From a virus, in IMG/VR virus record IMGVR_UViG_3300036857_000203, positions 1-64,000 of that record: a stretch of 64,000 bases of DNA. One strand, written 5' to 3'. The position numbers were made by a program, and so were the translations under genes. Below, in pieces: positions 3,001-42,688 of this stretch. How positions within the stretch are numbered: position 1 is the stretch's first letter; each line of letters starts with the position of its first letter. Under the pieces are notes generated by a model. The model was not told the origin of the DNA. It searched no databases and saw only the letters and a program-made list of their open reading frames with translations.

Positions 3001-3512
3001 GGGCGCAGAAGAAGATTCCCGGCATGCGTGATCCCGCACTGCAGCAGGCCATTGGCGCGCTGGACTTCGACTACCATGCCGTGGCGAGCGAGCTGATGCG
3101 TGCCTTCCGGGGCACCGGCTCGGCAAGCGAGCGCGAGGCACATCGCATCGCCGAGAAGCTCAACGTCTATGCGCCGTTGGATGTGCAGCGCGAGACCATC
3201 AGGGAGGCCACCGAGCTGCTCTACGGTCGTGTCGAGGCCTCGGCCAAGACCTACAACAGCGCGGTTGGCCCGGGCTACGAGCGCTCGCCGGAGTCCTGGC
3301 TGAGTGGCAAGAGCCGCGAGACGCTGGGCCGCGCGATCAGCATCGATCCTAACAAGCCGATCCCGGCGGCACCCACATCTGGTGCTACGCCGCAGCAACC
3401 GCAGGGGCCGGGCGCTCTGTCTGCCGAGGATCAGAAGGCGGTCGATTGGGCGCGGCGCAATTCTGATAATCCCAAGGCGAAAGAGATACTGCAGCTGCAC
3501 GGGTTACAGTGA
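1..3512 (+). CDS. Internal virion/DNA-ejection polyprotein (5'-truncated) with a truncated S74-type autocleavage motif and a putative cell-wall hydrolase-like domain
   Basis: Frame is open from position 3 (..GNAFGGDRAGIAEG.., Q-rich), so it extends upstream of the 255 start in the ORF track. Contains SDPKTKTDVQRVG..LYGFRYRGD..VGPMA (S74-like) and several (F/Y/M)AxGG motifs. Confidence 0.7.
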   Translation, partial: QAIRSGNAFGGDRAGIAEGILSGQQQLAQAPVIAGLRQAGYTQALDEYNRLKQFGLQGAGAALGWGGLQQQQQQREFDVAQQNAMMSSAYPFQTLNWYGSILGGIAPLLGTTASGANNPPEQSGLGGALGVGSAAVGLGSAALGAFGGGGGSAPGVGPGGKRGGIVGHGGIGSYARGGGIVDLEPGEWRYAEGGSVWGDSDDEDRPSESKAESYSREPEPFRPPETTSTTAGGSWGRNVGQLKTSARQLPQPVFPSAGGGGGGQQKSEAEQWLNLGKGALDLGIKAAPYLAMLSDPKTKTDVQRVGRTDDGEPLYGFRYRGDPKSYPKVVGPMARPMAWGGYIPRFADGGPTDEDDQLTLTDLGVLSPGGRELPPSIAGPVRGSPGGLPVSAEDMPNLARVRERFRPVLENDPKLARQFDVNTTAEVGTDPGARRFYQALTLDRAAARGESLPYTLSRGPGTPDRFYPASTMAATRPSGMGPAPSLWMGANPANYGTGNASYDPRTGRHVGFAGGPQTGSIQTGSGIERAGVEGPDLPAVRRWGYAGPTRTAIGPSGPQGTGVISAKMIDRGEQLETGPSAATGPGGTRSSGERTGSMQPSLRAGETKDYPSLAKPAPTFAQRLATNPFWQFGTALMAKPGIKGRELSAIGGAAQFMSEQQIKERNRVLDEKPQMIKQDDGSIGFLSSDGKFTQMFGPSASEQREAQKHARDMSLPKEVTTEREGRFGSTQTIKTPYVWDERQQKMVPMNPAATPQPETPQVAPPAAPPQPPAATPPQQPAPDQPAPPTSQRPVRQTQAAEPTDWMEIGANTGTFYSASTQQYKQPDGSIVPALDKGVRPTIPSQTPAASGPAVAAEGPGLQNTQRAWTSGEVAPAGSITDPAALAVRRNEAALAGLSPEDQQTIKNIVDYKADPNKLFVGRTANLRDPAMRKALEYDPTYNPQLLAQRQKAAVAFGVNGVEARNIQSHDTAIQHLGRAMTNIERLNNYDYQWVNQARDWAQKKIPGMRDPALQQAIGALDFDYHAVASELMRAFRGTGSASEREAHRIAEKLNVYAPLDVQRETIREATELLYGRVEASAKTYNSAVGPGYERSPESWLSGKSRETLGRAISIDPNKPIPAAPTSGATPQQPQGPGALSAEDQKAVDWARRNSDNPKAKEILQLHGLQ

Positions 3513-6500
3513 TGGCCGACGACTTCGACCCAGATGCCTATCTGGCGGGGAAGCGTTCAGCGCCGGCTGAACCAGAGTTTGACCCGGATGCTTACCTGCG
3601 CAGCAAGGCGCCACCTGAACGCGGCGTGCTGCACCGTGCCGTTGCGGCTCCGTGGGAGAGTATCAAGGAGAGCGGGCGGGCAATCGCCGCTCCTTTCATC
3701 CCGCCGAAGACCAAGAAGGAAGCGGAGGAGAGGGGAGGTGTCCTCTCCAGTGCAGGCGAGGTCGGCGGTGCCATCCTCAGCGCGGCCGGTGCAATCCCAG
3801 GCGCCATCCTTTCGCCGGCACAGTCGCTGGTCTCATCCGGCTTGGCGGCGATTACACCCGGCGAGAAGACCTCCGAGCAGAAGTACGAGGAGTGGATGCC
3901 CAAGGTGGGCACCGCCTTCATGGGGCTGGGACGAGCGCCGGGCGTCGCGGGCGCTGGCAAGTTCCCGATGCCGGACCCGATCCTGGCACGCACGAAGAAG
4001 GTCCCAGCCCAGGGCAAAGAAGCCGAGGCTGGGCGCTTCCTGGAGTCGCAGGCGACCGACCCAGCCAAGCTGCGGGCCGACCTTGCTGCGGCCGACCAGG
4101 AGATCGTGCCGGGCTCCCAGCCCACCACGCACCAGCTGACCGGACAGCTCGGGCAGCAAGAGCGGGTTGCCGCGCGCACCGATCCCGAGATGGTGGAGGC
4201 GTTCAAGCAGCGGCAGGCGGCACAGAACCGCGCCCGCCAGCAGGCGTTTGAGGGCGCCGAAGGGACAGGGTCGCCGGCCGAGGTCTCGCAGCACCTGCGC
4301 AACGAACTCAACGCGACGAACGCTGCCAACGAGGCTGCCGTCAGGACTGCTGAGCAGCGGGCTTTCGAAGCCCAGCAGCGGCTGGGCGCCGAGTACGACC
4401 CCACTGTCATGGGCGAGCGCATGCGCCGCGAGATCGAGATCGCGGAGACGGCGGCGCGCGAGCGCGAGCGTGGACTCTGGCGGGCGGTCGATCCCGAAGG
4501 CACGCTGGTTGCTGATCCCGCCGGCATCCAAGCGGTCGAACGGGGCATCTATAGCCCCGCAAGGATGACACCCACGGCACGGGCTGGGGTCTCCCAGGGC
4601 GAGGCAGAGATCAGCAACCTGATACAGAACTACGGGCGCTACATCCCGTTCCAGGAACTCACCGACTTGCGCTCTCTGGTCTCGACGCGCATGCGGGAAG
4701 AGCGCATGGCGCGCGGCGCCAACTCGCCATCGTTCGTGCGCCTCGTGCGGATGCGCCAGGGCATCGAGGATGCGTTGGTGTCGAGCGTGTCTGATGTGCA
4801 GCCCACAGGCGTGGCGCGCGGAGCCGGCGCCATCGGCGCCCAGGAGCGGGTGCAGGCGGCAAGCGCGGCCACCCGGCAGCGCGCCGAGCAGTTCAATCCT
4901 TTGCGCAACATCACGCGCAGCGAGGCTGGCGAGGCCTACAAGCTGGGACCGTCCTCGGTCCCGGGCAAGATCGTGCTGCCGGGAGCCAAGGGCTACGACA
5001 GCGTGTCGAACTATCTGCGCGCTGTCGGTAACGACGCCGGCATGTCCACGGTGCAGGATGCACTGCTTGGTCGTCTGCGTGCCGAGGTGTTTGACCGCGC
5101 CGGCACGTCACAGCAGGCGCAGAACAGGCTCGAAGGCTTCTTCCGCCGTTACGGGGATACGCTACGTGCCATCGATGAGCGTGACGGCGGGGCGTTCTCG
5201 CAGCGGCTGCGCTCGGCTGGTGGTGCCCAGGGCGCCGTCGAGGCCGCACAGCTGCGGCAGCGGACAGCAGAAGCCGCGCAGGCTACTGATCAGTTCAGGA
5301 AGTTGGCGGGCCTCACCGAGGAGGCCGACATTGCCAAGACCATCGGCAACATCTTCGGCAAGCAGGACTCCGTGCAGCGTGCCGCCGACCTGATGCGCCG
5401 GCTCGTCGGCAACCCGGCGGCAGAAGAGGGCGCTCGCCGCGCCGTTATCCAGCACATGCGCAATGTCCTGACCGGTGACGTGCTGGTGGGCGACACTCCC
5501 AACGTGCGGGCGCAGGCGTTCCAGAAGTACGTGCGGCTCAACAAGCCTGCGCTGCAACAGATACTGCGGCCCGAGCAGATCGAGACGCTGGAGCTGATCG
5601 CGCGCGACCTCCTGCGCGAGACCCGCACCAACCAGACCAAGGCTGTGGGCGGTGGCTCCGACACCTATCAGATGTTCAAGGCTGGCGAGCAGAAGCAGGG
5701 GGCGATCAGGAGTATTGCTAAGCGGCTCACCAGCCCGCTGGTGGGCAAGGTCATCACGCACTGGCTCGCCGGCACCTTCGGTGGCCCGGCTGCGTCAGTG
5801 GCGCTGGCGGTGGGTGAGGGCGGGCTTGAGGCCGGGCGAGCGGCGCGTGCCGGGCGCCGGGCGCAGGAGGCCATCGACATCCAGCGCATGATCGATGAGG
5901 CCATGCTCGACCCTGCCAAGGCGAAGCAGTACCTCGGCAAGACCCACACCTACAAAGCAAGGACCCCAGGTGCAAAGACCATCCTCGGATATGAAGCAGG
6001 CGCGGCCGAGAAACAACGACAGTCGATCCCACGCCAATCGGGCGGTGGTGTTCCTGCGATTGGCGGCACAGGAGGGCGATCCCCGGGAGCGAGAGAGATT
6101 GCTCGCGCTCGCCAAGCACGCCAAGGGGCAAGCCAAGCTCTACGCGATGGTGGAGAGGCGGGGCAGCAAGAAGCCGATCAAGGCTCGCGTGAGAAGCTAG
6201 CCACAGCACTGACCAGTGCCGGGCCGTTCGGCGGCTCGCCTGCCGGTGGCGGCGAGATGACGGGGGGTATGTTCAAGACCAAGGGCAAGATGGGCGAGCC
6301 GTTGACGCGCCAGAAGGTGGTCGACACTCTGCGCCAACACGGCATCACCGATCCCGAGGTGCTCAAGGGCTGGACCGAAGGCTGGGCCCATACCGCTGAG
6401 TCGCGTGCTGCGGGTGGGGGCGTCGATGAAGAGGGTGAGAGCCTCACGCAGCCGCTGTTCACCGACAAGGACCCCGACGACGATCCGGTCGACTACGCGA

Positions 6501-9500
6501 GGCGGATGCGGGGCTGGGCTGCCGGGCGCCGCGATCCGGGAGAGTACAAGCCCAACCTCATGCGACCGGAGATGCGGCCCGAGGAGGTTGAGCAATACGA
6601 GGGCTGGCGTGGCCCGACCGGCCGGCGCTTCCTGCAGGGGGGTGGGGGTGTGGACCCGACGCCGCCGCCGGTTCCCGACCCGCCGCCAACACCGGAGCCG
6701 ACGACCGACGCAATCGCTGGCTCGGACCTGATCCATCCATCCCTGCCGTTCTCGGACCAGGATCAGCAGCGCAAGCAAAGGGGTCTCGGCCTGATCCCAG
6801 GCATGTTTGCGGAAGGCGGTGGAGTGGACGATGACAAGCTCCCGCTTCCCGGCCAGAGCATCGGCCTGGGCAAGGAGCCGCGCGTGCCGCTGCCCACCAA
6901 CAAGGCCGGCGAGACCCTGCCCGAGTACATCGTCAAGGCCTGGGGGCGCGGCGCCCGTGACTGGGCGACGACGCCGGGCCGCGCCTACCGCGAGGGTCTT
7001 ACCCCCGAGGAGGAGACGAACTGGGGCGCCGGCACTGCCATGGGCATGATGGGGACCGGCACACCGTTCGCTGGTCCGGGTCTCGGTATCTTCGGTGGGC
7101 GCGGCGCGCACACGGCGAACCTCAAGATGCTGGAGAAGGCTGAGCAGATGCGTGCCAAAGGCGCCAGCCCGGAGGAGATATGGAACCAGACCGGCTGGTA
7201 TCGCGGCGCCGAGGGCAAGCCCCGCTTTGAGATATCAGATGCAGAAGCGCGGTTGGCGGAGCTTGATCCCGACCAGCTCAAGCGCGCCCGCGCGAGCGGC
7301 ACGGCACATCGGTTCAGCCCGGTTCTTAGCGACGTGCTGGAGCACCCCGAGCTGTATCGGGCCTATCCCGAGATGAAGGGGGTCACCGGAGAGGTGGTGA
7401 CCGATCCTCTCGGGCCTAGATACGGTGGTTTCTTTCAGCAACCCCAGCCGACTCTTGTGGGCGTGGACCCGCCCTACATCAGCGTGACCGGCCAGACCAG
7501 CGACCTCGCGCTCGAAGCGCTGCTGCACGAGGCGCAACACGGCGTGCAGAACCTGGAGCGCTTCACGCCCGGATCAAGCCCGGCCCTGGCCGCCAAGGTT
7601 GTCGGACGGGGGCGTCTTGGCCAGATGGCGGAGGTGCTGGCGCAGGATAAAGGGCTGGATTACCGGATGCTCTCGCCCAAGCAGAAGCAACAGTTTCGCG
7701 ACGAGGCCGGCGTCACGTCCTACGAGCTGATGGCCGGCGAGGTCGAGCCGCGCAACGTCCAGCTCCGTTGGAGGAAGGGCATCTCCCAGCTGCCGCCCTG
7801 GGAGACGGAGAACCCGGGGCGGCCATACCAGCTCGTCCCCTCGGGCCAGAAGCGCAAGCCCTTCGTCAAGCCGGTTCCCTACCAGGAGGGCGGCGCGGTC
7901 GAGGAGGAGAAGCCGCCCGAGATGCCTCCCGCCGTCATGGACAGCTGGGGTGATCCGTTCGAGCACGCTGCTCAGCGACAGGCGCGGGCGGTGCGGCCAA
8001 GGTCAGTCACCCAGGAGGGACGTAAGGAGGGCTTGGCGACCCGCGCCATCGAGAGCATGGCCCCTGATCCGACCTCGCCGCTGGACATCGGCATGACCGT
8101 GGCGGGCGGCCCCTTCGGCCGCGCTGCCAAGGTTGGCGCGGTCAGCCTGGGCATGTTGCTCGAAGGTCTGTCCCCAGCAGAGGCCGGCAGGGTCAAGACA
8201 CTGGTTGAGCTGGGCGTCGATCCGGCCGTCATCCGGCGCATCCTGAAGGGAACCAAGGAGCAAGGTGGCGGCACCTTCCCATTGCATGGCCCATCGCCAA
8301 CCGAAGGCCTGATGATGGGCAAGTACAGCAACGTCGACCCTCGCAGCCTCAGACTGCCGCCTGGGGAAGAGCTGTCCCGCAAGAACCTGGATGAGTTCAT
8401 CCGGCGTAACTACAAGACGCTGGAGGACAAGGATCGCTTCATTGGAACATGGCGCGATCCTGATACGGGCAAGACCTACGCGGAGGTATCGCAGCGCTTC
8501 CCGGCCGAGGATGTTCGACAGGCGGTGAAGTTCGGCGAGCGCACCGGACAGATCGCCGGCTACAACCTTGGCAAGGGCGAATCATTCCCGGTTGGTAACT
8601 GGCAGGAGTTCATCCGCTCGCCTGAGTTCCGCAAGCGCATGGCCGAGATGGAAGAGGTCGGTCATGAGTATCTCAAGGGCCAGAAGTACCCGGACTGGTG
8701 GACGAACGTACCGTTCGCGCGGGTGTACGGCGAGCGGCGTCTGCCCCAGGTCGCCGGCTACACCGCATCGACCGCGCCAAACGCGGCGCCACGCGAGAAC
8801 CTGCAGACCATGTCGGAGTACATGCGCCGCTCGATCAGGGGCGAGCCGATCGTCCAGCCCAGCTGGCGGATACCGGAAGGCACCATGAGCCGTCAGGCTG
8901 GCTCCGAGATCGGCATGGAGCAAAGCCGCATCCCCAACCTATTGAAGTCCGAGCGTGGCGCGCTGGGTGAGTTGCAGCGCAACAAGGTGCGCGAGGAGGC
9001 TGCAGCCTTCATGGGTGACCCCGGCGCCGTGGTGCTCGACCGGCATCAGATCAGGCTGTCGGAAGCCCCCGAGCGCAACATCTTCGCTGGTGTTGGAGAG
9101 GGCACGATCGGATCACGGCCGCTCGCTGGTGGGCAGCTCAATGATTACGAGAAGCTCAAGCGTGAGTTCACAGAGCACGGTGCCCGAACCGGGCGCGATC
9201 CACGCAGTCAAAGCGCTGATATCTGGACCGGTATCCGAGACACTATCCAGAGAACCGACGAGCTGTATGGCACGCCGTACCGAGGCTCGGCTATCCCCGG
9301 CGAGAGCAAGTCTTATGCTGATCACTTCGAGGACTTGCTGGAGGACAAGGCCAAGCACCTCAACATCAGCAAGGCGAAGATGGAGAGCGAGCTGAACAAG
9401 GGCAACGAGAACCTGCTCAGCTGGCTTCTGGTGACGACCCCGGCGCTTTACGCGGCTTATCGGCAGATGCAGGCACCTCGCGAAAGCGGAGCGCCATCCA

Positions 9501-9535
9501 GCGGAGGAATCCCGCGTGGCGGCGGCGAGCTATGA
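3509..9535 (+). CDS. 2008-aa large polyvalent/internal virion protein with an LPD23-like HExxH metallopeptidase, a SAM-lyase-like domain and a HhH glycosylase-like C-terminal domain
   Basis: IWNQTGWYRGAEGKPRFEISD..LEHPELYRAYP..LLHEAQHGVQ..GEVEPRNVQLR; IGTWRDPDTGKTYAEVS..GQIAGYNL; VVLDRHQIR..QSADIW. Domains are separated by xxxGGxV motifs. Confidence 0.7.
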   Translation: MMADDFDPDAYLAGKRSAPAEPEFDPDAYLRSKAPPERGVLHRAVAAPWESIKESGRAIAAPFIPPKTKKEAEERGGVLSSAGEVGGAILSAAGAIPGAILSPAQSLVSSGLAAITPGEKTSEQKYEEWMPKVGTAFMGLGRAPGVAGAGKFPMPDPILARTKKVPAQGKEAEAGRFLESQATDPAKLRADLAAADQEIVPGSQPTTHQLTGQLGQQERVAARTDPEMVEAFKQRQAAQNRARQQAFEGAEGTGSPAEVSQHLRNELNATNAANEAAVRTAEQRAFEAQQRLGAEYDPTVMGERMRREIEIAETAARERERGLWRAVDPEGTLVADPAGIQAVERGIYSPARMTPTARAGVSQGEAEISNLIQNYGRYIPFQELTDLRSLVSTRMREERMARGANSPSFVRLVRMRQGIEDALVSSVSDVQPTGVARGAGAIGAQERVQAASAATRQRAEQFNPLRNITRSEAGEAYKLGPSSVPGKIVLPGAKGYDSVSNYLRAVGNDAGMSTVQDALLGRLRAEVFDRAGTSQQAQNRLEGFFRRYGDTLRAIDERDGGAFSQRLRSAGGAQGAVEAAQLRQRTAEAAQATDQFRKLAGLTEEADIAKTIGNIFGKQDSVQRAADLMRRLVGNPAAEEGARRAVIQHMRNVLTGDVLVGDTPNVRAQAFQKYVRLNKPALQQILRPEQIETLELIARDLLRETRTNQTKAVGGGSDTYQMFKAGEQKQGAIRSIAKRLTSPLVGKVITHWLAGTFGGPAASVALAVGEGGLEAGRAARAGRRAQEAIDIQRMIDEAMLDPAKAKQYLGKTHTYKARTPGAKTILGYEAGAAEKQRQSIPRQSGGGVPAIGGTGGRSPGAREIARARQARQGASQALRDGGEAGQQEADQGSREKLATALTSAGPFGGSPAGGGEMTGGMFKTKGKMGEPLTRQKVVDTLRQHGITDPEVLKGWTEGWAHTAESRAAGGGVDEEGESLTQPLFTDKDPDDDPVDYARRMRGWAAGRRDPGEYKPNLMRPEMRPEEVEQYEGWRGPTGRRFLQGGGGVDPTPPPVPDPPPTPEPTTDAIAGSDLIHPSLPFSDQDQQRKQRGLGLIPGMFAEGGGVDDDKLPLPGQSIGLGKEPRVPLPTNKAGETLPEYIVKAWGRGARDWATTPGRAYREGLTPEEETNWGAGTAMGMMGTGTPFAGPGLGIFGGRGAHTANLKMLEKAEQMRAKGASPEEIWNQTGWYRGAEGKPRFEISDAEARLAELDPDQLKRARASGTAHRFSPVLSDVLEHPELYRAYPEMKGVTGEVVTDPLGPRYGGFFQQPQPTLVGVDPPYISVTGQTSDLALEALLHEAQHGVQNLERFTPGSSPALAAKVVGRGRLGQMAEVLAQDKGLDYRMLSPKQKQQFRDEAGVTSYELMAGEVEPRNVQLRWRKGISQLPPWETENPGRPYQLVPSGQKRKPFVKPVPYQEGGAVEEEKPPEMPPAVMDSWGDPFEHAAQRQARAVRPRSVTQEGRKEGLATRAIESMAPDPTSPLDIGMTVAGGPFGRAAKVGAVSLGMLLEGLSPAEAGRVKTLVELGVDPAVIRRILKGTKEQGGGTFPLHGPSPTEGLMMGKYSNVDPRSLRLPPGEELSRKNLDEFIRRNYKTLEDKDRFIGTWRDPDTGKTYAEVSQRFPAEDVRQAVKFGERTGQIAGYNLGKGESFPVGNWQEFIRSPEFRKRMAEMEEVGHEYLKGQKYPDWWTNVPFARVYGERRLPQVAGYTASTAPNAAPRENLQTMSEYMRRSIRGEPIVQPSWRIPEGTMSRQAGSEIGMEQSRIPNLLKSERGALGELQRNKVREEAAAFMGDPGAVVLDRHQIRLSEAPERNIFAGVGEGTIGSRPLAGGQLNDYEKLKREFTEHGARTGRDPRSQSADIWTGIRDTIQRTDELYGTPYRGSAIPGESKSYADHFEDLLEDKAKHLNISKAKMESELNKGNENLLSWLLVTTPALYAAYRQMQAPRESGAPSSGGIPRGGGEL

Positions 9536-14987: not shown

Positions 14988-15069
14988 GCCTGCCTCACCT
15001 CGCCGAGCCAAGCCACACCGAGGCCTGTCTTGCCGTGACGAGCCAAGCCGAGCCGAGCCGCGCCATGAA
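14988..15069 (-). ncRNA. Stand-alone GGC-NN guide unit B (14 pentamers plus GGCAGGC end)
   Basis: Intergenic minus-strand sequence AT GGC GC GGC TC GGC TC GGC TT GGC TC GTC AC GGC AA GAC AG GCC TC GGT GT GGC TT GGC TC GGC GA GGT GA GGCA GGC; same grammar as the main array. Confidence 0.8.
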
Positions 15070-21384: not shown

Positions 21385-21860
21385 ACTTCTGGGCGGACCT
21401 TCAGTACGAACCGGAAACCGGTAAGTTCTACCGGCTGAAGTCCGCTCGCAGCGTGAAGGCTGGAGATGAGGCTGGTTGCCTGAACCCCTCAACTCAGTAT
21501 TGGATCATCCGCGTCGGAGGGAGAAGTTATCGCCGTGGGCGATTGGCATGGCTTTATATGACCGGTCGCTGGCCGATCGCGCAGATTGATCACATCAATG
21601 GGGTAAAGACTGATGACCGGATCGAGAATCTCCGAGAGGCGACTAATTCACAGAACGCCTTAAACAAACGACGGACACGCCAGAACACATCAGGTTTCAA
21701 GGGCGTCACTTGGCATAAACGCACTCGCCGCTGGCATGCTCAGATCAACATCGGCGGCAAGAATAAGTACATCGGTAGTTTCCGGTCTCCCGAGGAGGCC
21801 CATGACGCTTATTGGCGGGCTGCGCAGGATGGTCACGGTGCGTTTGGGAGGAAAGAGTGA
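21381..21860 (+). CDS. HNH-AP2 homing endonuclease
   Basis: IDHINGVKTDDRIENLREAT..SGFKGVTW..WHAQI..YIGSF..EEAHDAY. Confidence 0.9.
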   Translation: MNFWADLQYEPETGKFYRLKSARSVKAGDEAGCLNPSTQYWIIRVGGRSYRRGRLAWLYMTGRWPIAQIDHINGVKTDDRIENLREATNSQNALNKRRTRQNTSGFKGVTWHKRTRRWHAQINIGGKNKYIGSFRSPEEAHDAYWRAAQDGHGAFGRKE

Positions 21861-23467
21861 AGGAACTCAGACCTTACCAAGAAGACGCCCTCCAGGCGAT
21901 CCGGCAGACGGTAGGCCAGGGGGTGAAACGTCTCGTGTGTCAATCACCTACTGGGTCAGGCAAGACGTTGCTCGCGGCAACGATCGTTGACGGCGCGCTG
22001 CGCAAGGGCAACCGGCTGTGTTTCACGGTGCCGGCGATCGACCTTGTCGATCAGACCGTGGAGATGTTCTACGCCCAGGGCATCAAGGACGTCGGCGTCA
22101 TCCAGGCTGACCACCGGATGACCAACTGGCAGATGCCAATCCAAGTCGCGAGCATCCAGACTATCCGCTCGCGCGGAATCTATCCCGAGGCCCAGGTCGT
22201 CGTCATTGACGAGTGCCACCAGTTGCACAAGGCGCACGTCAAGTGGTTGAGCGATCCTGACTGGCAAGCAGTGCCGTTCATCGGGCTCAGTGCAACTCCC
22301 TGGACGCGCGGCCTCGGGAAGCACTTCTCGTCCTTATTGGTGATGTCTACGACGAAAGAGCTGATCGAGGAGGGGTACTTATCCAGGTTCCGGGTGTTTG
22401 CGGCGGATCATCCTGATCTGAGCAATGTTCCGACCATGGGCAAGACCGGCGATTACAAGGAAGCGCCGCTGTCCACCGTGATGAGCCAGCAGCAGCTGAT
22501 GGCGAACGTGATCGAGACCTGGAGGGTGCGCCACAACGCTGACAAGACGCTGTGCTTCGCAGTTGATCGTGCGCACGCGAAGTCGCTGCAAGAGCGCTTC
22601 CTCGACGCTGGCATCTCATGCGCGTACCAGGACGCCAACACACCGAGCGCAGAGCGTGCAGAGATCAAGAGGAGATTCCATAGTGGAGATTATCGTGTGG
22701 TTTGCAGTGTCGGAACATTGTGCACGGGCGTCGACTGGGACGTCAGATGTCTCGTCTTGGCAAGGCCGACGAAGAGCGAAATGCTTTACGTGCAAATCAT
22801 TGGTCGAGGCTTACGAACGGCTGAGGGCAAGACTCACCTGCTTGTTCTCGATCACACGTCCACAACGGAGCGGCTCGGGCTGGTGACCGACGTTCACCAC
22901 GATAGCTTGTCGATGGGCAAGCTCGATGAGAATAAGGCTGCTCCGCGTAAGCCGCCGCTGCCTCGACCCTGTCCGCAGTGCAGCTGCCTGATGGCGGTCG
23001 GTGTACGAGTCTGCGAGGAGTGCGGCTTCGAGCGCAAGATCGTGTCGAAGGTCACCGAGAGAGACGGTCAGCTGGTGGAGTTCGATGGGACGTTTCGCAA
23101 GAAGGGCAAGACTGATCCCAAGTTGCTGCCGTATTCGTTCGCGGAGAAGATCAAATACTTTCAGCAGCTGCGCGGCTATGAGGTAATGCGTGGCTATCGG
23201 AAAGGTTGGGCCGCGAATCAATTCCGGGAGAAGTTCAATGAAGGCTGGCCCCCGTGGTCCTGGAACGATCTCGCACCAATGGCGCCCGGCCCCGAAGTCA
23301 CGTCCTGGATCAAATCCCGACTCATTGCATGGGCACAGAGTAAAGCTCGAACTGCTAGCGCTGCAGCTGGCACTCCACGGTCCGACAGCGGTAACACCCA
23401 GCGCAGTTCGTATTCTGGCGCGAAGCCCGCTGTGGCTGGAGACGAGACTACTCCTCCGTGGGAGTAA
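21857..23467 (+). CDS. Superfamily 2 (DExH) helicase with C-terminal zinc ribbon
   Basis: LRPYQ, SPTGSGKT, VIDECH, LSATP, GVDWD, QIIGRGLR, CPQC..CEECG. Confidence 0.92.
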   Translation: MKELRPYQEDALQAIRQTVGQGVKRLVCQSPTGSGKTLLAATIVDGALRKGNRLCFTVPAIDLVDQTVEMFYAQGIKDVGVIQADHRMTNWQMPIQVASIQTIRSRGIYPEAQVVVIDECHQLHKAHVKWLSDPDWQAVPFIGLSATPWTRGLGKHFSSLLVMSTTKELIEEGYLSRFRVFAADHPDLSNVPTMGKTGDYKEAPLSTVMSQQQLMANVIETWRVRHNADKTLCFAVDRAHAKSLQERFLDAGISCAYQDANTPSAERAEIKRRFHSGDYRVVCSVGTLCTGVDWDVRCLVLARPTKSEMLYVQIIGRGLRTAEGKTHLLVLDHTSTTERLGLVTDVHHDSLSMGKLDENKAAPRKPPLPRPCPQCSCLMAVGVRVCEECGFERKIVSKVTERDGQLVEFDGTFRKKGKTDPKLLPYSFAEKIKYFQQLRGYEVMRGYRKGWAANQFREKFNEGWPPWSWNDLAPMAPGPEVTSWIKSRLIAWAQSKARTASAAAGTPRSDSGNTQRSSYSGAKPAVAGDETTPPWE

Positions 23468-23593
23468 TCTGTTCACCGGGGCCGAGATCAACATCTTGAT
23501 GGGCGGAGTGCACCCCCATGGCTGTTGCTGCTGGGGGTGCATCCGTCAGTTACGACAGCGGGTGATAGCCCACCGTCGCAGGCTGGAGGCTAA

Positions 23594-24152
23594 GCCTGCC
23601 AAGCCCGGCCAGGACTGAACGCACCAAGCCAAGCCCGGCCCTGCCTTGCCTCGCCTCGCCAAGCCCTAGCTAGCCGGGCCAGGACTGCCACGCCAAGCCA
23701 AGCCCTGTCAGGTCCTGGCGTGCCGTGCCTTGCCGTGCCGTGCCTGCCGGGCCAAGCCGTGCCTGTCCGAGGCCTGCCGCGTCTTGCCGGGCCTAGCCCT
23801 GCCGGGCCTGCCGCGACATGCCGCGTCTTGTCAGGTCGGGACATGCCGGGCCATACCGCGCCCGCCTTGCCTCAACTGCCGCGACATGCCGAGCCTGGAC
23901 CTGCCATGTCCAGCCGTCCGAGCCGGGCCAATGCCACGCCTGCCGAGCCAAGCCAGCGTCGGGCCAAGGCATGCCGTGACATGTCATCCACGTAGATGAC
24001 GTGCCTGCCATGCCCCGCCTTGCCGCGCACCGCCGGGCCGAGCCTCGCCGGGCCAAGCCCCGCCGCACCGGGCCTGCCGGGCCGCGCCATGCCGAGCCAC
24101 GTCCCACCGGGACGCGCCACGCCAAGCCGCGCCGAGCCTGCGTTACCGTGCC
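23594..24152 (-). ncRNA. GGC-NN pentamer array: eight 59-70 nt guide-like units plus a 19-nt remnant
   Basis: The minus strand reads GGC-NN with 5-nt period (minor GGT/GTC/GAC/GCC variants). Register is reset by a 4-nt GGCA step. Units: 24075-24138, 24006-24074, 23941-24005, 23877-23940, 23809-23876, 23745-23808, 23686-23744, 23616-23685. Starts about 8 nt after the stop codon of 24161-24691. Confidence 0.85.
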
Positions 24153-24160
24153 TAAGACTT

Positions 24161-24691
24161 CTACCGTTGGGCCGCAGCCCTCGGTCTCTCCCCCGGCCGC
24201 CGACGCGGCGGCTGCGGGCGAGATGGCGGTTTCTTCTCGTCGTCTTTGCCAAGCTCATTCACGATGCTGTCGAGCCGGGCGTAGAACTCGCTTTCCAGTT
24301 TGGTTGTTCGCGCATGACCATGTGCATCGACCAGCAAGTTGCGGACTCGATCCATGAGCACTGCCAGGATGCGCGAGTTCTTCTCCTTCGTTGCACTCGC
24401 AACATCGACGTACGTGCCGACCGCCGACCTGGGATCGGGGTCGTGCCGATATCGCGGAAGCACGCGCGAGAGATCGATGTCGTTGATCTCGGGACGGGGA
24501 CAGCTACGGATGATCTCCTCGGCACGCGCCAAGAGATACCTTCGATGAACTCGCGCCGGGTCCCAATCGAACAACTTGTTCAACTCGCTGTTCTGATCCC
24601 TCCCCGCCTCCACGACATCGCGTGCGTTGATCGTGCCGTTACCGTCGCGCAGCTCATCGAGTGCGGTGATCTGCTCGGTCGTAAGATTCAT
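24161..24691 (-). CDS. Accessory protein of the RAMP-array locus (unknown function)
   Basis: Overlaps the RAMP stop codon by 4 nt. GTINARDVVEAGRDQNSELNKLFDWD..YLLARAEEIIR. Confidence 0.8.
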   Translation of the reverse strand: MNLTTEQITALDELRDGNGTINARDVVEAGRDQNSELNKLFDWDPARVHRRYLLARAEEIIRSCPRPEINDIDLSRVLPRYRHDPDPRSAVGTYVDVASATKEKNSRILAVLMDRVRNLLVDAHGHARTTKLESEFYARLDSIVNELGKDDEKKPPSRPQPPRRRPGERPRAAAQR

Positions 24692-25506
24692 GTGCTCGCT
24701 CCTGGTTGCTCGGGTTGATCGCTTGAACGAGAGCGCGTTACGGGATCGCGCCGCCGCATCACCTCAGCGTCGTACCAGCCCAGCAAGTCGGCGCTCTCTT
24801 CGTCAGCGAACGATGGATCATCGAGCGCTGCGAGCTGTGCCTCGCGCCCCTCTTTCTCGACAATGTCCATCCATTCGGGATGATCGTGGCTCACGACATC
24901 CCAGGAGCCGAAAGAGAATGCGCCGCGTTCCTGGCGCCCGTCGCCGACACCGACAATCATGCCGGCGTTCATCGCTAGATTGAGCACGTCGTCGAGCGTG
25001 ATCAGGTCGCGCACATAGCGAAAGCTCATGGAGCACGCCCAGCGCGGGAAGTAGGCGCGCGTGCGGATGTCGGGCGTCTTGGCGATGCCGGCCTGCCGCA
25101 CCATCGACATGTGCAGCTGCGGGATGCCGTACAGGAAGATCGTCGGCGTGGTTACGGTAATGAGCCGGCCCACTTCCGCTCGTGTTGCGCCCGGCGTGTC
25201 GACTGCCGCCTGGGCGAGCGCTTTCTTGATGCTGTTGCCGGGGAGGTGGACGGCGGCTGGCGCATCGGCGTCGCGGCAGCGATAGACCGAGGCGCGGAAC
25301 TCTTCGAGCGGATCGTGCTTGAGGGTGGCTGCGCGTGCTGCCCGGTTGGGAGCGCGTGGGGGGAGGAGTATCTGGCGCTTCGCCTTCTCGGTGAAGCGGT
25401 TCATCACGAGCGCGCTTGTGCCCAGGAGATGGAGAGTCGCGCCCACCATCTGCAATCGACTGATGAGCGGGCGCTCCGCACCAGTCTGCTTTGCCGCTTT
25501 CGCCAT
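24688..25506 (-). CDS. Cas7/Csm3-like RAMP-fold RNA-binding protein
   Basis: RAMP hallmarks: N-terminal strand ATLHLLGTSALVM, HLPGNSIKKAL (cf. IPGSSLKG of Csm3/Cmr RAMPs), a long insertion MVRQAGIAKTPDIRTR, and a C-terminal Gly-rich loop GMIVGVGDGRQERGAFSFGSW. Confidence 0.75.
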   Translation of the reverse strand: MAKAAKQTGAERPLISRLQMVGATLHLLGTSALVMNRFTEKAKRQILLPPRAPNRAARAATLKHDPLEEFRASVYRCRDADAPAAVHLPGNSIKKALAQAAVDTPGATRAEVGRLITVTTPTIFLYGIPQLHMSMVRQAGIAKTPDIRTRAYFPRWACSMSFRYVRDLITLDDVLNLAMNAGMIVGVGDGRQERGAFSFGSWDVVSHDHPEWMDIVEKEGREAQLAALDDPSFADEESADLLGWYDAEVMRRRDPVTRSRSSDQPEQPGAST

Positions 25507-33551: not shown

Positions 33552-33640
33552 GGCAAGGCAAGGCGCGGCAGGGCACGGCCCGGCGATACAGGGCTGGGCC
33601 CGGCACGGCGCGCCTCGGGGGGGGGTCATGCCCCCTCCCC
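33552..33640 (+). ncRNA. Stand-alone GGC-NN guide unit C (13 pentamers) followed by a G/C hairpin
   Basis: GGC AA GGC AA GGC GC GGC AG GGC AC GGC CC GGC GA TAC AG GGC TG GGC CC GGC AC GGC GC GCC TC, then G9-TCATG-CCCCCTCCCC. Confidence 0.8.
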
Positions 33641-36619: not shown

Positions 36620-37078
36620 ATGGCTAAGAGAACACGGTCTAAAGCCAGACCGAAACAAGCCGTAGTCCAGGCACCCGACGATGCACCCGCCCAAGTCGCT
36701 AGACGCCGCGCCAACGGCCAATGGCGGCCAGGGTATTCAGGCACGATGGGCACCGACGCGGCACGCGCACGGCGTCAACTGAATCTCTCGACCATCTCGG
36801 CCCTACAGTCCGCCTTCGACCGTTACGGTAGATCGGCCATCGAGAAGGTCGCGCGTCAGCAGCCCGCGATCTTCCTCAAGATGTTGGTATTGCTTGTCCC
36901 GCGCGAGCTTGAGATTACCCAGGCGCAGGGCCCGCGCGGGATGAGTGACGAGGCATTGGAGCAGGCTGTCCAGGCCATCGAGGGCTTCCTGGCCAAGCGC
37001 GCCGCCGGCCCTGGCGCCGACGCGCGGGTGATCGAGGCGCAGCCAGCGGCGGATGATCCATCCGCTGACAAGCCTTGA
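36620..37078 (+). CDS. Putative terminase small subunit (DUF5681-like)
   Basis: RRANGQWRPGYSG..G; AIEKVARQQPAIFLKML..PRE..MSDEALE. Confidence 0.6.
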   Translation: MAKRTRSKARPKQAVVQAPDDAPAQVARRRANGQWRPGYSGTMGTDAARARRQLNLSTISALQSAFDRYGRSAIEKVARQQPAIFLKMLVLLVPRELEITQAQGPRGMSDEALEQAVQAIEGFLAKRAAGPGADARVIEAQPAADDPSADKP

Positions 37079-41931: not shown

Positions 41932-42224
41932 GCCTGGGTGAAGATCGCGTGCGGCTGGGGTTCAATCCCTCAGCGGATAACGTGGTGGATCAGTTCAAGC
42001 GGATGACCGCAGATTTGATCGATGCGTGCAACGAGAACAACAGCATCGGCAAGTCCTCCGAAGAGGGCCGGCTGTGGGCATTGGCTATGACGTACTATGA
42101 GATCGCTGCGATGTTCGCGGTGAAAGCAGCAACCGCATCGCAGAAGCCGAGCATCGATCCTGCGGTGAAAGAATATCCCGCCGACCATCCGGCGTCCGGT
42201 GACCTCGGGAGCGTGCCGCTTTGA
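41928..42224 (+). CDS. Acb2/Tad1-like helical-hairpin protein (possible nucleotide sponge)
   Basis: RVRLGFNPS..RLWALAMTYYEIAAMFAVKAAT. Confidence 0.55.
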   Translation: MSLGEDRVRLGFNPSADNVVDQFKRMTADLIDACNENNSIGKSSEEGRLWALAMTYYEIAAMFAVKAATASQKPSIDPAVKEYPADHPASGDLGSVPL

Positions 42225-42688
42225 GCTGGGTTGACGGCGAGGCGGCCTGGATTGCCGCGCACTATCTGCATGGCCACACCCAGCGCCAGATTGCCGATGA
42301 GCTGGGGCTTACTCCCGCCTGCATCAATGTCCAGGTCAGAAGGTTCTGTGAAGTGTGGGCACGGCAATCGGTGGAGCTGGTCTACGACAGTGCGCGCAAG
42401 GTCGTCCTGCGCCGCGCACTCGATCGCTATCTCATTGGCGGCGGTGTGCCCATTAAGCCGGACACGGCGACTAAGCGCGCCTTGCTGCGGCCAATCCCGT
42501 ACTTCGATGAGACTTACAGCAAAGCGCGTTATGAGCACGCTTGGCTGTTGCGGGCCGAGGGCGAATCCCTGCAAGTGATCGGAGATCGCGTCGGGGTCAG
42601 CAGGGAGCGGGCGGGCCAGATGATCCTGAAGTACGGCCGGACCATGACGTGGGCGATGCTGCGCACCCGGTTCAGGATTGCAGCATGA
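42221..42688 (+). CDS. Double HTH (sigma region-4-like) protein
   Basis: GHTQRQIADELG; GESLQVIGDRVGVSRERAGQMI. Confidence 0.7.
   Translation: MSWVDGEAAWIAAHYLHGHTQRQIADELGLTPACINVQVRRFCEVWARQSVELVYDSARKVVLRRALDRYLIGGGVPIKPDTATKRALLRPIPYFDETYSKARYEHAWLLRAEGESLQVIGDRVGVSRERAGQMILKYGRTMTWAMLRTRFRIAA

Follow-up and report, generated by a model that had tools for sequence, protein, structure and literature searches.

An array of GGCNN pentamers, in which NN stands for two variable bases, lies between two gene blocks of the phage in IMG/VR record IMGVR_UViG_3300036857_000203, positions 1 to 64,000 of which (64,000 nucleotides, hereafter the window) were analyzed. One unit of this array, unit 2, is very likely a single guide (vrRNA) of a phage Viral Interference Programmable Repeat (VIPR) system that specifies the N-terminal motif of a DUF5681 gene in a rival element; its binding would silence that gene.

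VIPR is described in three 2026 preprints (10.64898/2026.04.26.720920, 10.64898/2026.04.26.720927, 10.64898/2026.10.15.759431) as a relative of CRISPR composed of Vipr, vap and vrRNA, with examples in Escherichia phage SUSP1 and a Pseudomonas fulva prophage. According to the available text, a vrRNA consists of 9-16 GGY/NN pentamers, and one protomer of Vipr, a minimal RAMP protein with an RRM core, a glycine-rich loop and a thumb, hides the GGY of each pentamer (10.64898/2026.04.26.720920, 10.64898/2026.04.26.720927). The NN dinucleotides are stated to pair with double-stranded DNA and to leave out one target base in three, usually a codon wobble position, and an 80% NN match is given as the threshold for natural targets (10.64898/2026.04.26.720920).

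Results

Unit 2 reads as the N-terminal motif of a DUF5681 gene

24005-24074, minus strand: unit 2, 13 variable NN and a terminal GGCAG

On the plus strand, unit 2 opens with TGCC at 24006-24009 and continues as 13 pentamers at 24010-24074 (ATGCC CCGCC TTGCC GCGCA CCGCC GGGCC GAGCC TCGCC GGGCC AAGCC CCGCC GCACC GGGCC). The constant part is GCC in 11 of the 13; the two deviants, GCGCA (24025) and GCACC (24065), correspond to UGC and GGU in the RNA. A one-base phase slip bounds the unit on each side, reading GC[C]TGCC on the plus strand at 24005-24009 and 24074-24078. A script that took the first two bases of every pentamer returned AT CC TT GC CC GG GA TC GG AA CC GC GG, identical to the list that an earlier note on this DNA had read from the sequence. 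That note had also treated each NN as codon positions 1 and 2 with the third position free, which is the '1-nt skip rule' in the available text of the first VIPR preprint (10.64898/2026.04.26.720920). Under this rule the predicted target strand, AT.CC.TT.GC.CC.GG.GA.TC.GG.AA.CC.GC.GG, encodes [M/I]-P-[F/L]-A-P-G-[E/D]-S-G-[N/K]-P-A-G.

The motif in unit 2 goes beyond chance. In a survey of the window and 80 related loci, the best 80 of 491 viral-contig relatives of the window's vipr gene product (P0002), the motif F/W-x-P-G-x-S-G-N-P-x-G could be read only once among 3982 NN in 421 in-phase runs, the occurrence being unit 2 itself. Shuffling the 3982 NN within runs remade it in 0 of 200 trials.

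Sequence collections were then scanned with exact patterns. The nine-NN core, CC.GG.GA.TC.GG.AA.CC.GC.GG, is matched exactly 38 times in viral contigs. Of these matches, 36 lie in frame within x-P-G-E-S-G-N-P-A-G and skip the third position of each codon; the remaining two have PGESGKPAG. The pattern of the last 11 NN has 9 matches in metagenome contigs and none in viral contigs, and a pattern with the fourth NN left free has 13 matches in genome contigs. The matched open frames carry PF18932 (DUF5681) at E<=1e-4 in 35/38 viral, 8/9 metagenome and 4/13 genome cases, and above the gathering cut-off (27.5 bits) in 33/38, 7/9 and 4/13, so the best matches are DUF5681 genes, as the earlier note had predicted. 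Frames without a DUF5681 match include two polyprenyl synthases, a read-through frame of HxlR/peroxiredoxin type and several short frames. When the same nine NN were searched with a 2-nt skip, the viral contigs yielded 5 matches as against 38 with the 1-nt skip; with the shuffles above, this bears out the claim that the matches exceed controls.

The closest matches are five metagenome loci (L193, L194, L195, L198 and L199) that agree with unit 2 at 24 of 26 bases, or 92% as compared with the published 80% threshold. Twelve consecutive NN are exact in each, the initial AT alone fails, and the encoded peptide is R-P-F-A-P-G-E-S-G-N-P-A-G, or Q-P-L-A-... in L194. Five viral loci match at 23/26, and so does L196. 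The earlier note placed the start of the match at the initiator ATG. This is what L154 and L177 (23/26) show, where the match begins with that codon (MAFKPGESGNPAG); the 24/26 loci do not show it, as AT is mismatched in them and the motif lies about 12 codons into the P0125 protein.

P0125 (147 aa) belongs to the family of the L195 protein, which has 448 relatives at E<=1e-10, with PF18932 present on all 120 of those listed. Among these 120, the L195 protein's own cluster (P0125, 99% identical) alone fits 12 of the 13 decoded codons; 11 fit in five others and fewer in the rest. The guide therefore fits one lineage, with Ala at position 4 and Glu at position 7, and not merely the family consensus. 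The motif starts at a median of residue 15 in the called proteins and at residue 12 in P0125, which places the guide's footprint close to the 5′ end of the gene. Among the relatives of the L195 protein, two (47% identity) are named as DUF5681 proteins of Bradyrhizobium, a faint hint at the host group.

Unit 2 lies in a locus with a Vipr homolog and an accessory gene

24688-25506, minus strand: vipr gene (P0002, 272 aa), small RAMP protein with the G-loop GVGDGRQERG
24161-24691, minus strand: accessory (vap-like) gene (P0001, 176 aa), with a basic C-terminal tail
23595-24140, minus strand: staggered vrRNA array, ~8 units of GGCNN pentamers (NNGCC on the plus strand) with one-base overlaps, GGCA[G]GC

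The source record is a 72,435-bp virus record of 63% G+C that carries phage genes for large terminase, portal, capsid, ERF recombinase and helicase. A gap of ~550 bp, flanked on one side by the helicase gene (21812-23467, plus strand) and on the other by a minus-strand gene block ending at 24161, is filled almost wholly by NNGCC pentamers on the plus strand; 45 of the window's 93 GCC-N2-GCC pairs fall at 23594-24136. All parts of the locus are on the minus strand in the order vipr (25506-24688), accessory gene (24691-24161), array (24140-23595). The array is oriented by its GGY pattern and by the vipr-strand bias of arrays among relatives. A comparison with three soil DNA runs showed that its sequence at 23919-24213 recurs, with no differences, in a second study. 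An Rfam scan of 23300-24400 gave nothing meaningful, and a promoter and terminator scan placed no sites inside the array.

By sequence profile and structural model, P0002 is a Vipr homolog with a predicted Cas7/Csm3-like RAMP fold. Searched as a single sequence with phmmer, its top match in the PDB is SUSP1 Vipr (36pp_D, E 0.02). A profile of 37 family sequences, namely P0002 and 36 of its 120 listed homologs, raised this match to E 6.6e-7, with the next match at 0.26. P0002 has 201 homologs at E<=1e-3, and none of them carries a Pfam domain. An AF2 model of P0002 (pLDDT 83.5, pTM 0.78) was compared with the PDB by Foldseek, and the top matches are all backbone RAMPs of CRISPR types III and VII (Csm3-type, Cmr6, Cas7-type, type VII); 14 matches reach E<=1e-3 with probabilities up to 1.00, at TM-scores of just 0.2-0.5.

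The residues of SUSP1 Vipr that read GGY are reported to be D177 and R179 of the G-loop, which read G1 and Y3, and R138 of the thumb, while W178 stacks on G2 (10.64898/2026.04.26.720927, available text). P0002 D189 and R191 align with D177 and R179, and R150 aligns with R138; across the 37 sequences D189 and R191 never vary, and R150 is conserved in at least 90%. The similarity to SUSP1 is limited to ~50 residues around the G-loop, and H17, E71 and M72 fall outside the aligned stretch. The accessory protein P0001 is homologous to gp52 of mycobacteriophage Saal (BLASTP E 2e-5), the neighbor of that phage's Vipr homolog, and has no match in Pfam, PHROGs or the PDB. The locus has these defining features of VIPR, as far as computation shows: a Vipr homolog with a predicted RAMP fold, pentamers with variable NN, an adjacent array on the same strand, and matches that follow the 1-nt skip rule.

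Related loci define the unit boundaries

In the survey, GGCNN arrays lie on the vipr strand in 47 of the 80 related loci and on the opposite strand in none. The array is downstream of vipr in 45 loci and upstream in 12, and an open reading frame resembling P0001 begins on the vipr strand no more than 1 kb downstream of vipr in 33 of the 80. In 48 sources, namely the window and the 47 loci with arrays, GGC triplets are spaced four bases apart 250 times, and 220 of these spacings read GGCAGGC. Distances from one such slip to the next peak at 49, 54, 59, 64, 69 and 74 nt, that is, at 5n-1 or 10-15 pentamers. Unit 2 is a typical unit, because its 69-nt span falls on one of these peaks. Overlap of neighboring vrRNAs by 1 nt, in 'staggered' arrays, is noted in the legend of fig. 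S18 of the first preprint (10.64898/2026.04.26.720920). Nine GCC at 5-nt spacing occur in at least 137 stretches of the viral contigs.

Other viral contigs hold other array forms. One of them (L037) has a pentamer array of ~1.5 kb at 1366-2911, and in another locus (L078, 1501-2272) the arrays are split by conserved spacers of ~100 nt and are possibly of the ribozyme-interspersed type. In L009 (1437-1793, minus strand) the array units close with TGAACGCC in place of the GGCAG junction.

The target may be a small-terminase-like or a regulatory gene

The earlier note called the target gene terminase-small-subunit-like. Gene order bears this out in part: a large terminase gene (ATPase domain) lies directly downstream of the PGESGNPAG-type gene for 16 of the 31 downstream open reading frames scanned, which were the longer ones among 55 (at least 80 aa), and these include L154, L177 (both 23/26) and L196. 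The label is not upheld by the loci that match best or by family annotation. No terminase gene lies within 0.7-1.2 kb on each side of the DUF5681 gene at L193, L195, L198 or L199, where an MqsA antitoxin gene or an RpiR/SIS regulator stands beside it. Pfam and PHROGs assign the family no function, and no source calls any of the 120 listed L195 relatives a terminase. In the available text of one paper (PMC8954984), a DUF5681 protein appears solely in a list of a virion proteome.

On these grounds, the DUF5681 gene could instead serve DNA binding or regulation in a satellite, integrative element or plasmid, in which case packaging would not be blocked. One of the four loci is chromosomal, since its contig is 528 kb long, and the target of unit 2 may belong to a satellite or island rather than to a complete prophage. 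Against a purely regulatory role stand the large terminase genes downstream in 16 of the 31 cases. Satellites that hijack packaging, moreover, often bear a small-terminase-like gene of their own. We regard a target unrelated to packaging as unlikely, although it is the strongest of the competing explanations.

The match is unlikely to be a coincidence

The array could be a genuine VIPR array in which the likeness of unit 2 to DUF5681 is fortuitous, the real target being another gene or none. A string of NN in which CC, GG and GC abound yields a peptide with much Pro, Gly and Ala, which resembles many motifs, and a perfect target was absent from all three collections. Several results weigh against our interpretation of unit 2, and some of them favor this alternative. 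Neither the viral nor the genome nor the metagenome contigs contain the exact 13-NN pattern with 1-nt skips, so that no 26/26 target was found. A genome locus, L183, matches at 24/26 within a 39-codon frame that has no DUF5681 match, and because this frame is not DUF5681, chance matches at 24/26 do occur. The scans required 18-22 bases to be exact (22 for the 24/26 matches) and were no complete census with mismatches allowed; targets that match better, or other targets, may have escaped them if the mismatches are scattered. Allowing up to 3 mismatches, the 13-NN pattern was found in 0 of 401 genomes of one candidate host order, that of the Rhizobiales metagenome-assembled genome G001, and a backwards control also gave 0. 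When units v1 and v3-v8 were compared with 60 DUF5681-pattern loci (1.2-kb flanks), they matched no better than shuffles, and this comparison thus gives no sign of several guides converging on one element. At the locus itself, no pseudoknot-type or conserved 3′ tail was seen on the array units, and in the G-loop P0002 has G190 where SUSP1 has W178.

Set against coincidence are the 35 of 38 exact core matches that fall in DUF5681 reading frames with the skipped base aligned to the wobble position, the drop to 5 matches when the spacing is changed, the failure of 200 shuffles to remake the motif, and the exact agreement of 12 consecutive NN in five separate metagenome loci. We consider a chance resemblance improbable.

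A still less probable explanation is that the tract acts as a DNA or RNA element, such as a C-rich Rho-loading tract, a two-tetrad G-quadruplex or R-loop origin, or an iterated protein-binding site. Such an element would suit a tract that sits where two gene blocks converge, beside a helicase gene, and whose composition is strongly asymmetric between the strands. A Vipr homolog and an accessory gene directly upstream on the GGC strand would not be expected of one, nor would the confinement of arrays to the vipr strand in the related loci (47/80 as against 0 on the opposite strand), a GGC that stays fixed while the NN vary, or two units that decode in frame to real gene families. Elements of these kinds, and attP, were early ideas that we dropped.

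Unit 1 is probably directed at rival vipr genes, and unit 2 has no self-target

24074-24138, minus strand: unit 1, 12 variable NN (24079-24138)

Unit 1, the neighbor of unit 2, decodes in the same sense to G-A-[I/M]-[D/E]-T-P-G-A-T-[K/N]-A-[D/E], a conserved segment of Vipr. It matches at 21/24 inside the vipr genes of L264, L207 and L206, compared with a maximum of 19 in 100 shuffles. The close Vipr homologs P0005, P0006 and P0014 read AAIDTPGATKAE, i.e. [A/V]AIDTPGATKAE, at this segment. The exact 12-NN pattern of unit 1 has no match in viral contigs, and units v2-v8 match the 80 vipr loci no better than shuffles do. On this decoding, unit 1 is probably a guide against rival vipr genes. Guides of this sort, with a lower score against self, are reported in the available text of the third preprint (10.64898/2026.10.15.759431). 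Within the phage's own vipr gene, the segment at 25170-25210 reads AAVDTPGATRAE and matches unit 1 at 20/24 (83%) near 25209, just over the 80% line, and some self-contact is possible.

That self-contact is what could be said for unit 2 being a guide for autoregulation of a gene of the phage itself, an explanation we find scarcely credible: with the array masked, the best match of unit 2 in its own 72-kb genome is 18/26, the level of 200 shuffles (mean 17.9, max 21). This agrees with the earlier note, which had held the target to be foreign. The same note named 36620-37078 as the phage's own candidate for such a gene. Its motif, WRPGYSGTMG, is indeed divergent and matches unit 2 at 13/26, and the protein is not detectably DUF5681. 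At 42221-42688, a 155-aa open reading frame with a helix-turn-helix overlaps the start of the TerL gene; it is likelier than 36620-37078 to be the small terminase of this phage.

Discussion

Proposed action of unit 2

By analogy with the systems in the preprints, vipr, the accessory gene and the array would be transcribed jointly, or the array shortly after the two genes, and cleavage at the GGCA|GGC junctions would release the single units. Along each unit, Vipr protomers would then polymerize as a filament, one per pentamer, burying GGC and presenting NN. The 13 NN of unit 2 would pair with double-stranded target DNA in the register NNxNNx..., by triplex and R-loop binding, passing over the wobble base of each codon. 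They would thereby specify a DUF5681 gene of a rival phage, prophage or satellite that shares the soil host, at the invariant N-terminal motif P-F-A-P-G-E-S-G-N-P-A-G, and binding there would silence transcription of the gene. Synonymous mutations would give no escape, because only amino-acid-determining positions are read.

A more specific proposal, which we hold tentatively and with slightly more doubt than conviction, is that unit 2 shuts off the packaging-recognition gene of a resident satellite or prophage that steals or competes for capsids. Packaging would then be a new class of VIPR target, and the array, with unit 1, would strike at both the packaging and the VIPR of rivals. In the available text of the 2026 preprints, the targets reported so far include recombinases and lysis-lysogeny regulators. 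The main texts searched make no mention of a DUF5681 or small-terminase-like target class, which figures and supplements may cover. The kind of system is thus already known from these preprints, the target class is new as far as the searched texts go, and the supplements may list the clade, which is large and unstudied, or the mycobacteriophage loci.

Comparison with known systems

VIPR studies to date, as far as the available preprint text states, concern SUSP1, the P. fulva prophage and small RNA sequencing of representative type III and V loci in E. coli. The locus in the window shares with them a phage-borne small RAMP protein with a G-loop (GVGD.R) beside an accessory gene, GGY/NN pentamer arrays that lie on the same strand and have 10-15 repeats per unit, an NN string that matches coding DNA with the wobble base skipped, and, for unit 2, the lack of a self-target; its predicted targets, like theirs, are genes of foreign mobile elements and rival vipr genes. 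It differs from SUSP1 in the length of Vipr (272 aa versus 202 aa) and in having G190 for W178. Its units run head to tail with a 1-nt overlap, as in the staggered arrays of the fig. S18 legend, and show no pseudoknot tail, and its accessory protein matches nothing in Pfam, PHROGs or the PDB.

The likeness extends to the backbone of Class 1 CRISPR (Cas7/Csm3/Cmr4-6). The predicted fold of P0002 is a RAMP fold of this type, and Vipr, as the preprint text describes it, shares the use of one protomer per fixed number of guide bases and a thumb that breaks the duplex periodically. The VIPR period is 5 nt with 2 pairing bases, whereas that of Class 1 CRISPR is 6 nt with 5. VIPR also lacks a repeat-spacer array, cas1/cas2 and a Cas6-type handle, and the guide itself is the repeat.

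A blastn comparison with phage records showed that the array resembles pentamer tracts in 27 Mycobacterium phage records. In the Cheoctovirus mycobacteriophages Saal and Donkeykong, the GGCNN pentamer and the GGCA|GGC junctions are the same as in the window. Saal gp51 is a Vipr homolog (hhalign 99.2%, E 1.1e-19), and gp52 is homologous to P0001. The arrangement differs: in Saal (L002, 1295-2750) the order is array, gp51, gp52, with the array upstream of vipr, whereas the array in the window is downstream. Hosts and backbones are also unrelated, an actinobacterial siphovirus as against a soil phage. In Donkeykong (L001, 2505-2850), the annotation places a protein gene, gp48, over part of the array. 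The string 'Mycobacteri' is absent from the main text of the first VIPR preprint (10.64898/2026.04.26.720920), and a literature search on mycobacteriophage pentanucleotides and motifs of the NNGCC/GGCNN type returned nothing relevant among the matches listed.

Significance

The locus is a clear example of VIPR from a distant and abundant clade, with 491 viral-contig relatives, a 272-aa Vipr and staggered guides set head to tail. It offers a testable pair of guide and target, in which the guide reads solely the amino-acid-determining bases of an invariant protein motif, and the same array bears a probable anti-VIPR guide beside it. Loci of the same type occur in phages of Mycobacterium smegmatis, which are easy to work with. 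VIPR targets can, as this case illustrates, be recovered by reading raw sequence. The biology confirms the published logic without overturning it; if the proposal above is true, one array would combine a weapon against competitors' packaging with a weapon against their VIPR, in a soil clade distant from the E. coli and Pseudomonas models.

Other features of the window

23983-24000: hairpin GTCATC-cacgta-GATGAC with a 6-bp stem, read from the sequence, inside the degenerate third unit
15002-15064, minus strand: short run of NNGCC (on the plus strand) 3′ of the ERF gene, ~6 GCC pairs
33552-33620, plus strand: short GGCNN array in an intergenic gap between minus-strand genes, 9 pairs

The third unit of the array (23945-24005) is degenerate, with several GGC lost, and may be a decayed guide or a structural element. 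The two short runs at 15002-15064 and 33552-33620 are possible solo vrRNAs, a form that is described in the available text of the third preprint (bioRxiv 10.64898/2026.10.15.759431). The final 50 bases of the 72,435-bp contig recur at its positions 150-199, which may reflect an assembly overlap or a terminal repeat. At 3509-9535 the window encodes a 2008-aa protein with a 'large polyvalent protein' domain (LPD23, E 1e-20).

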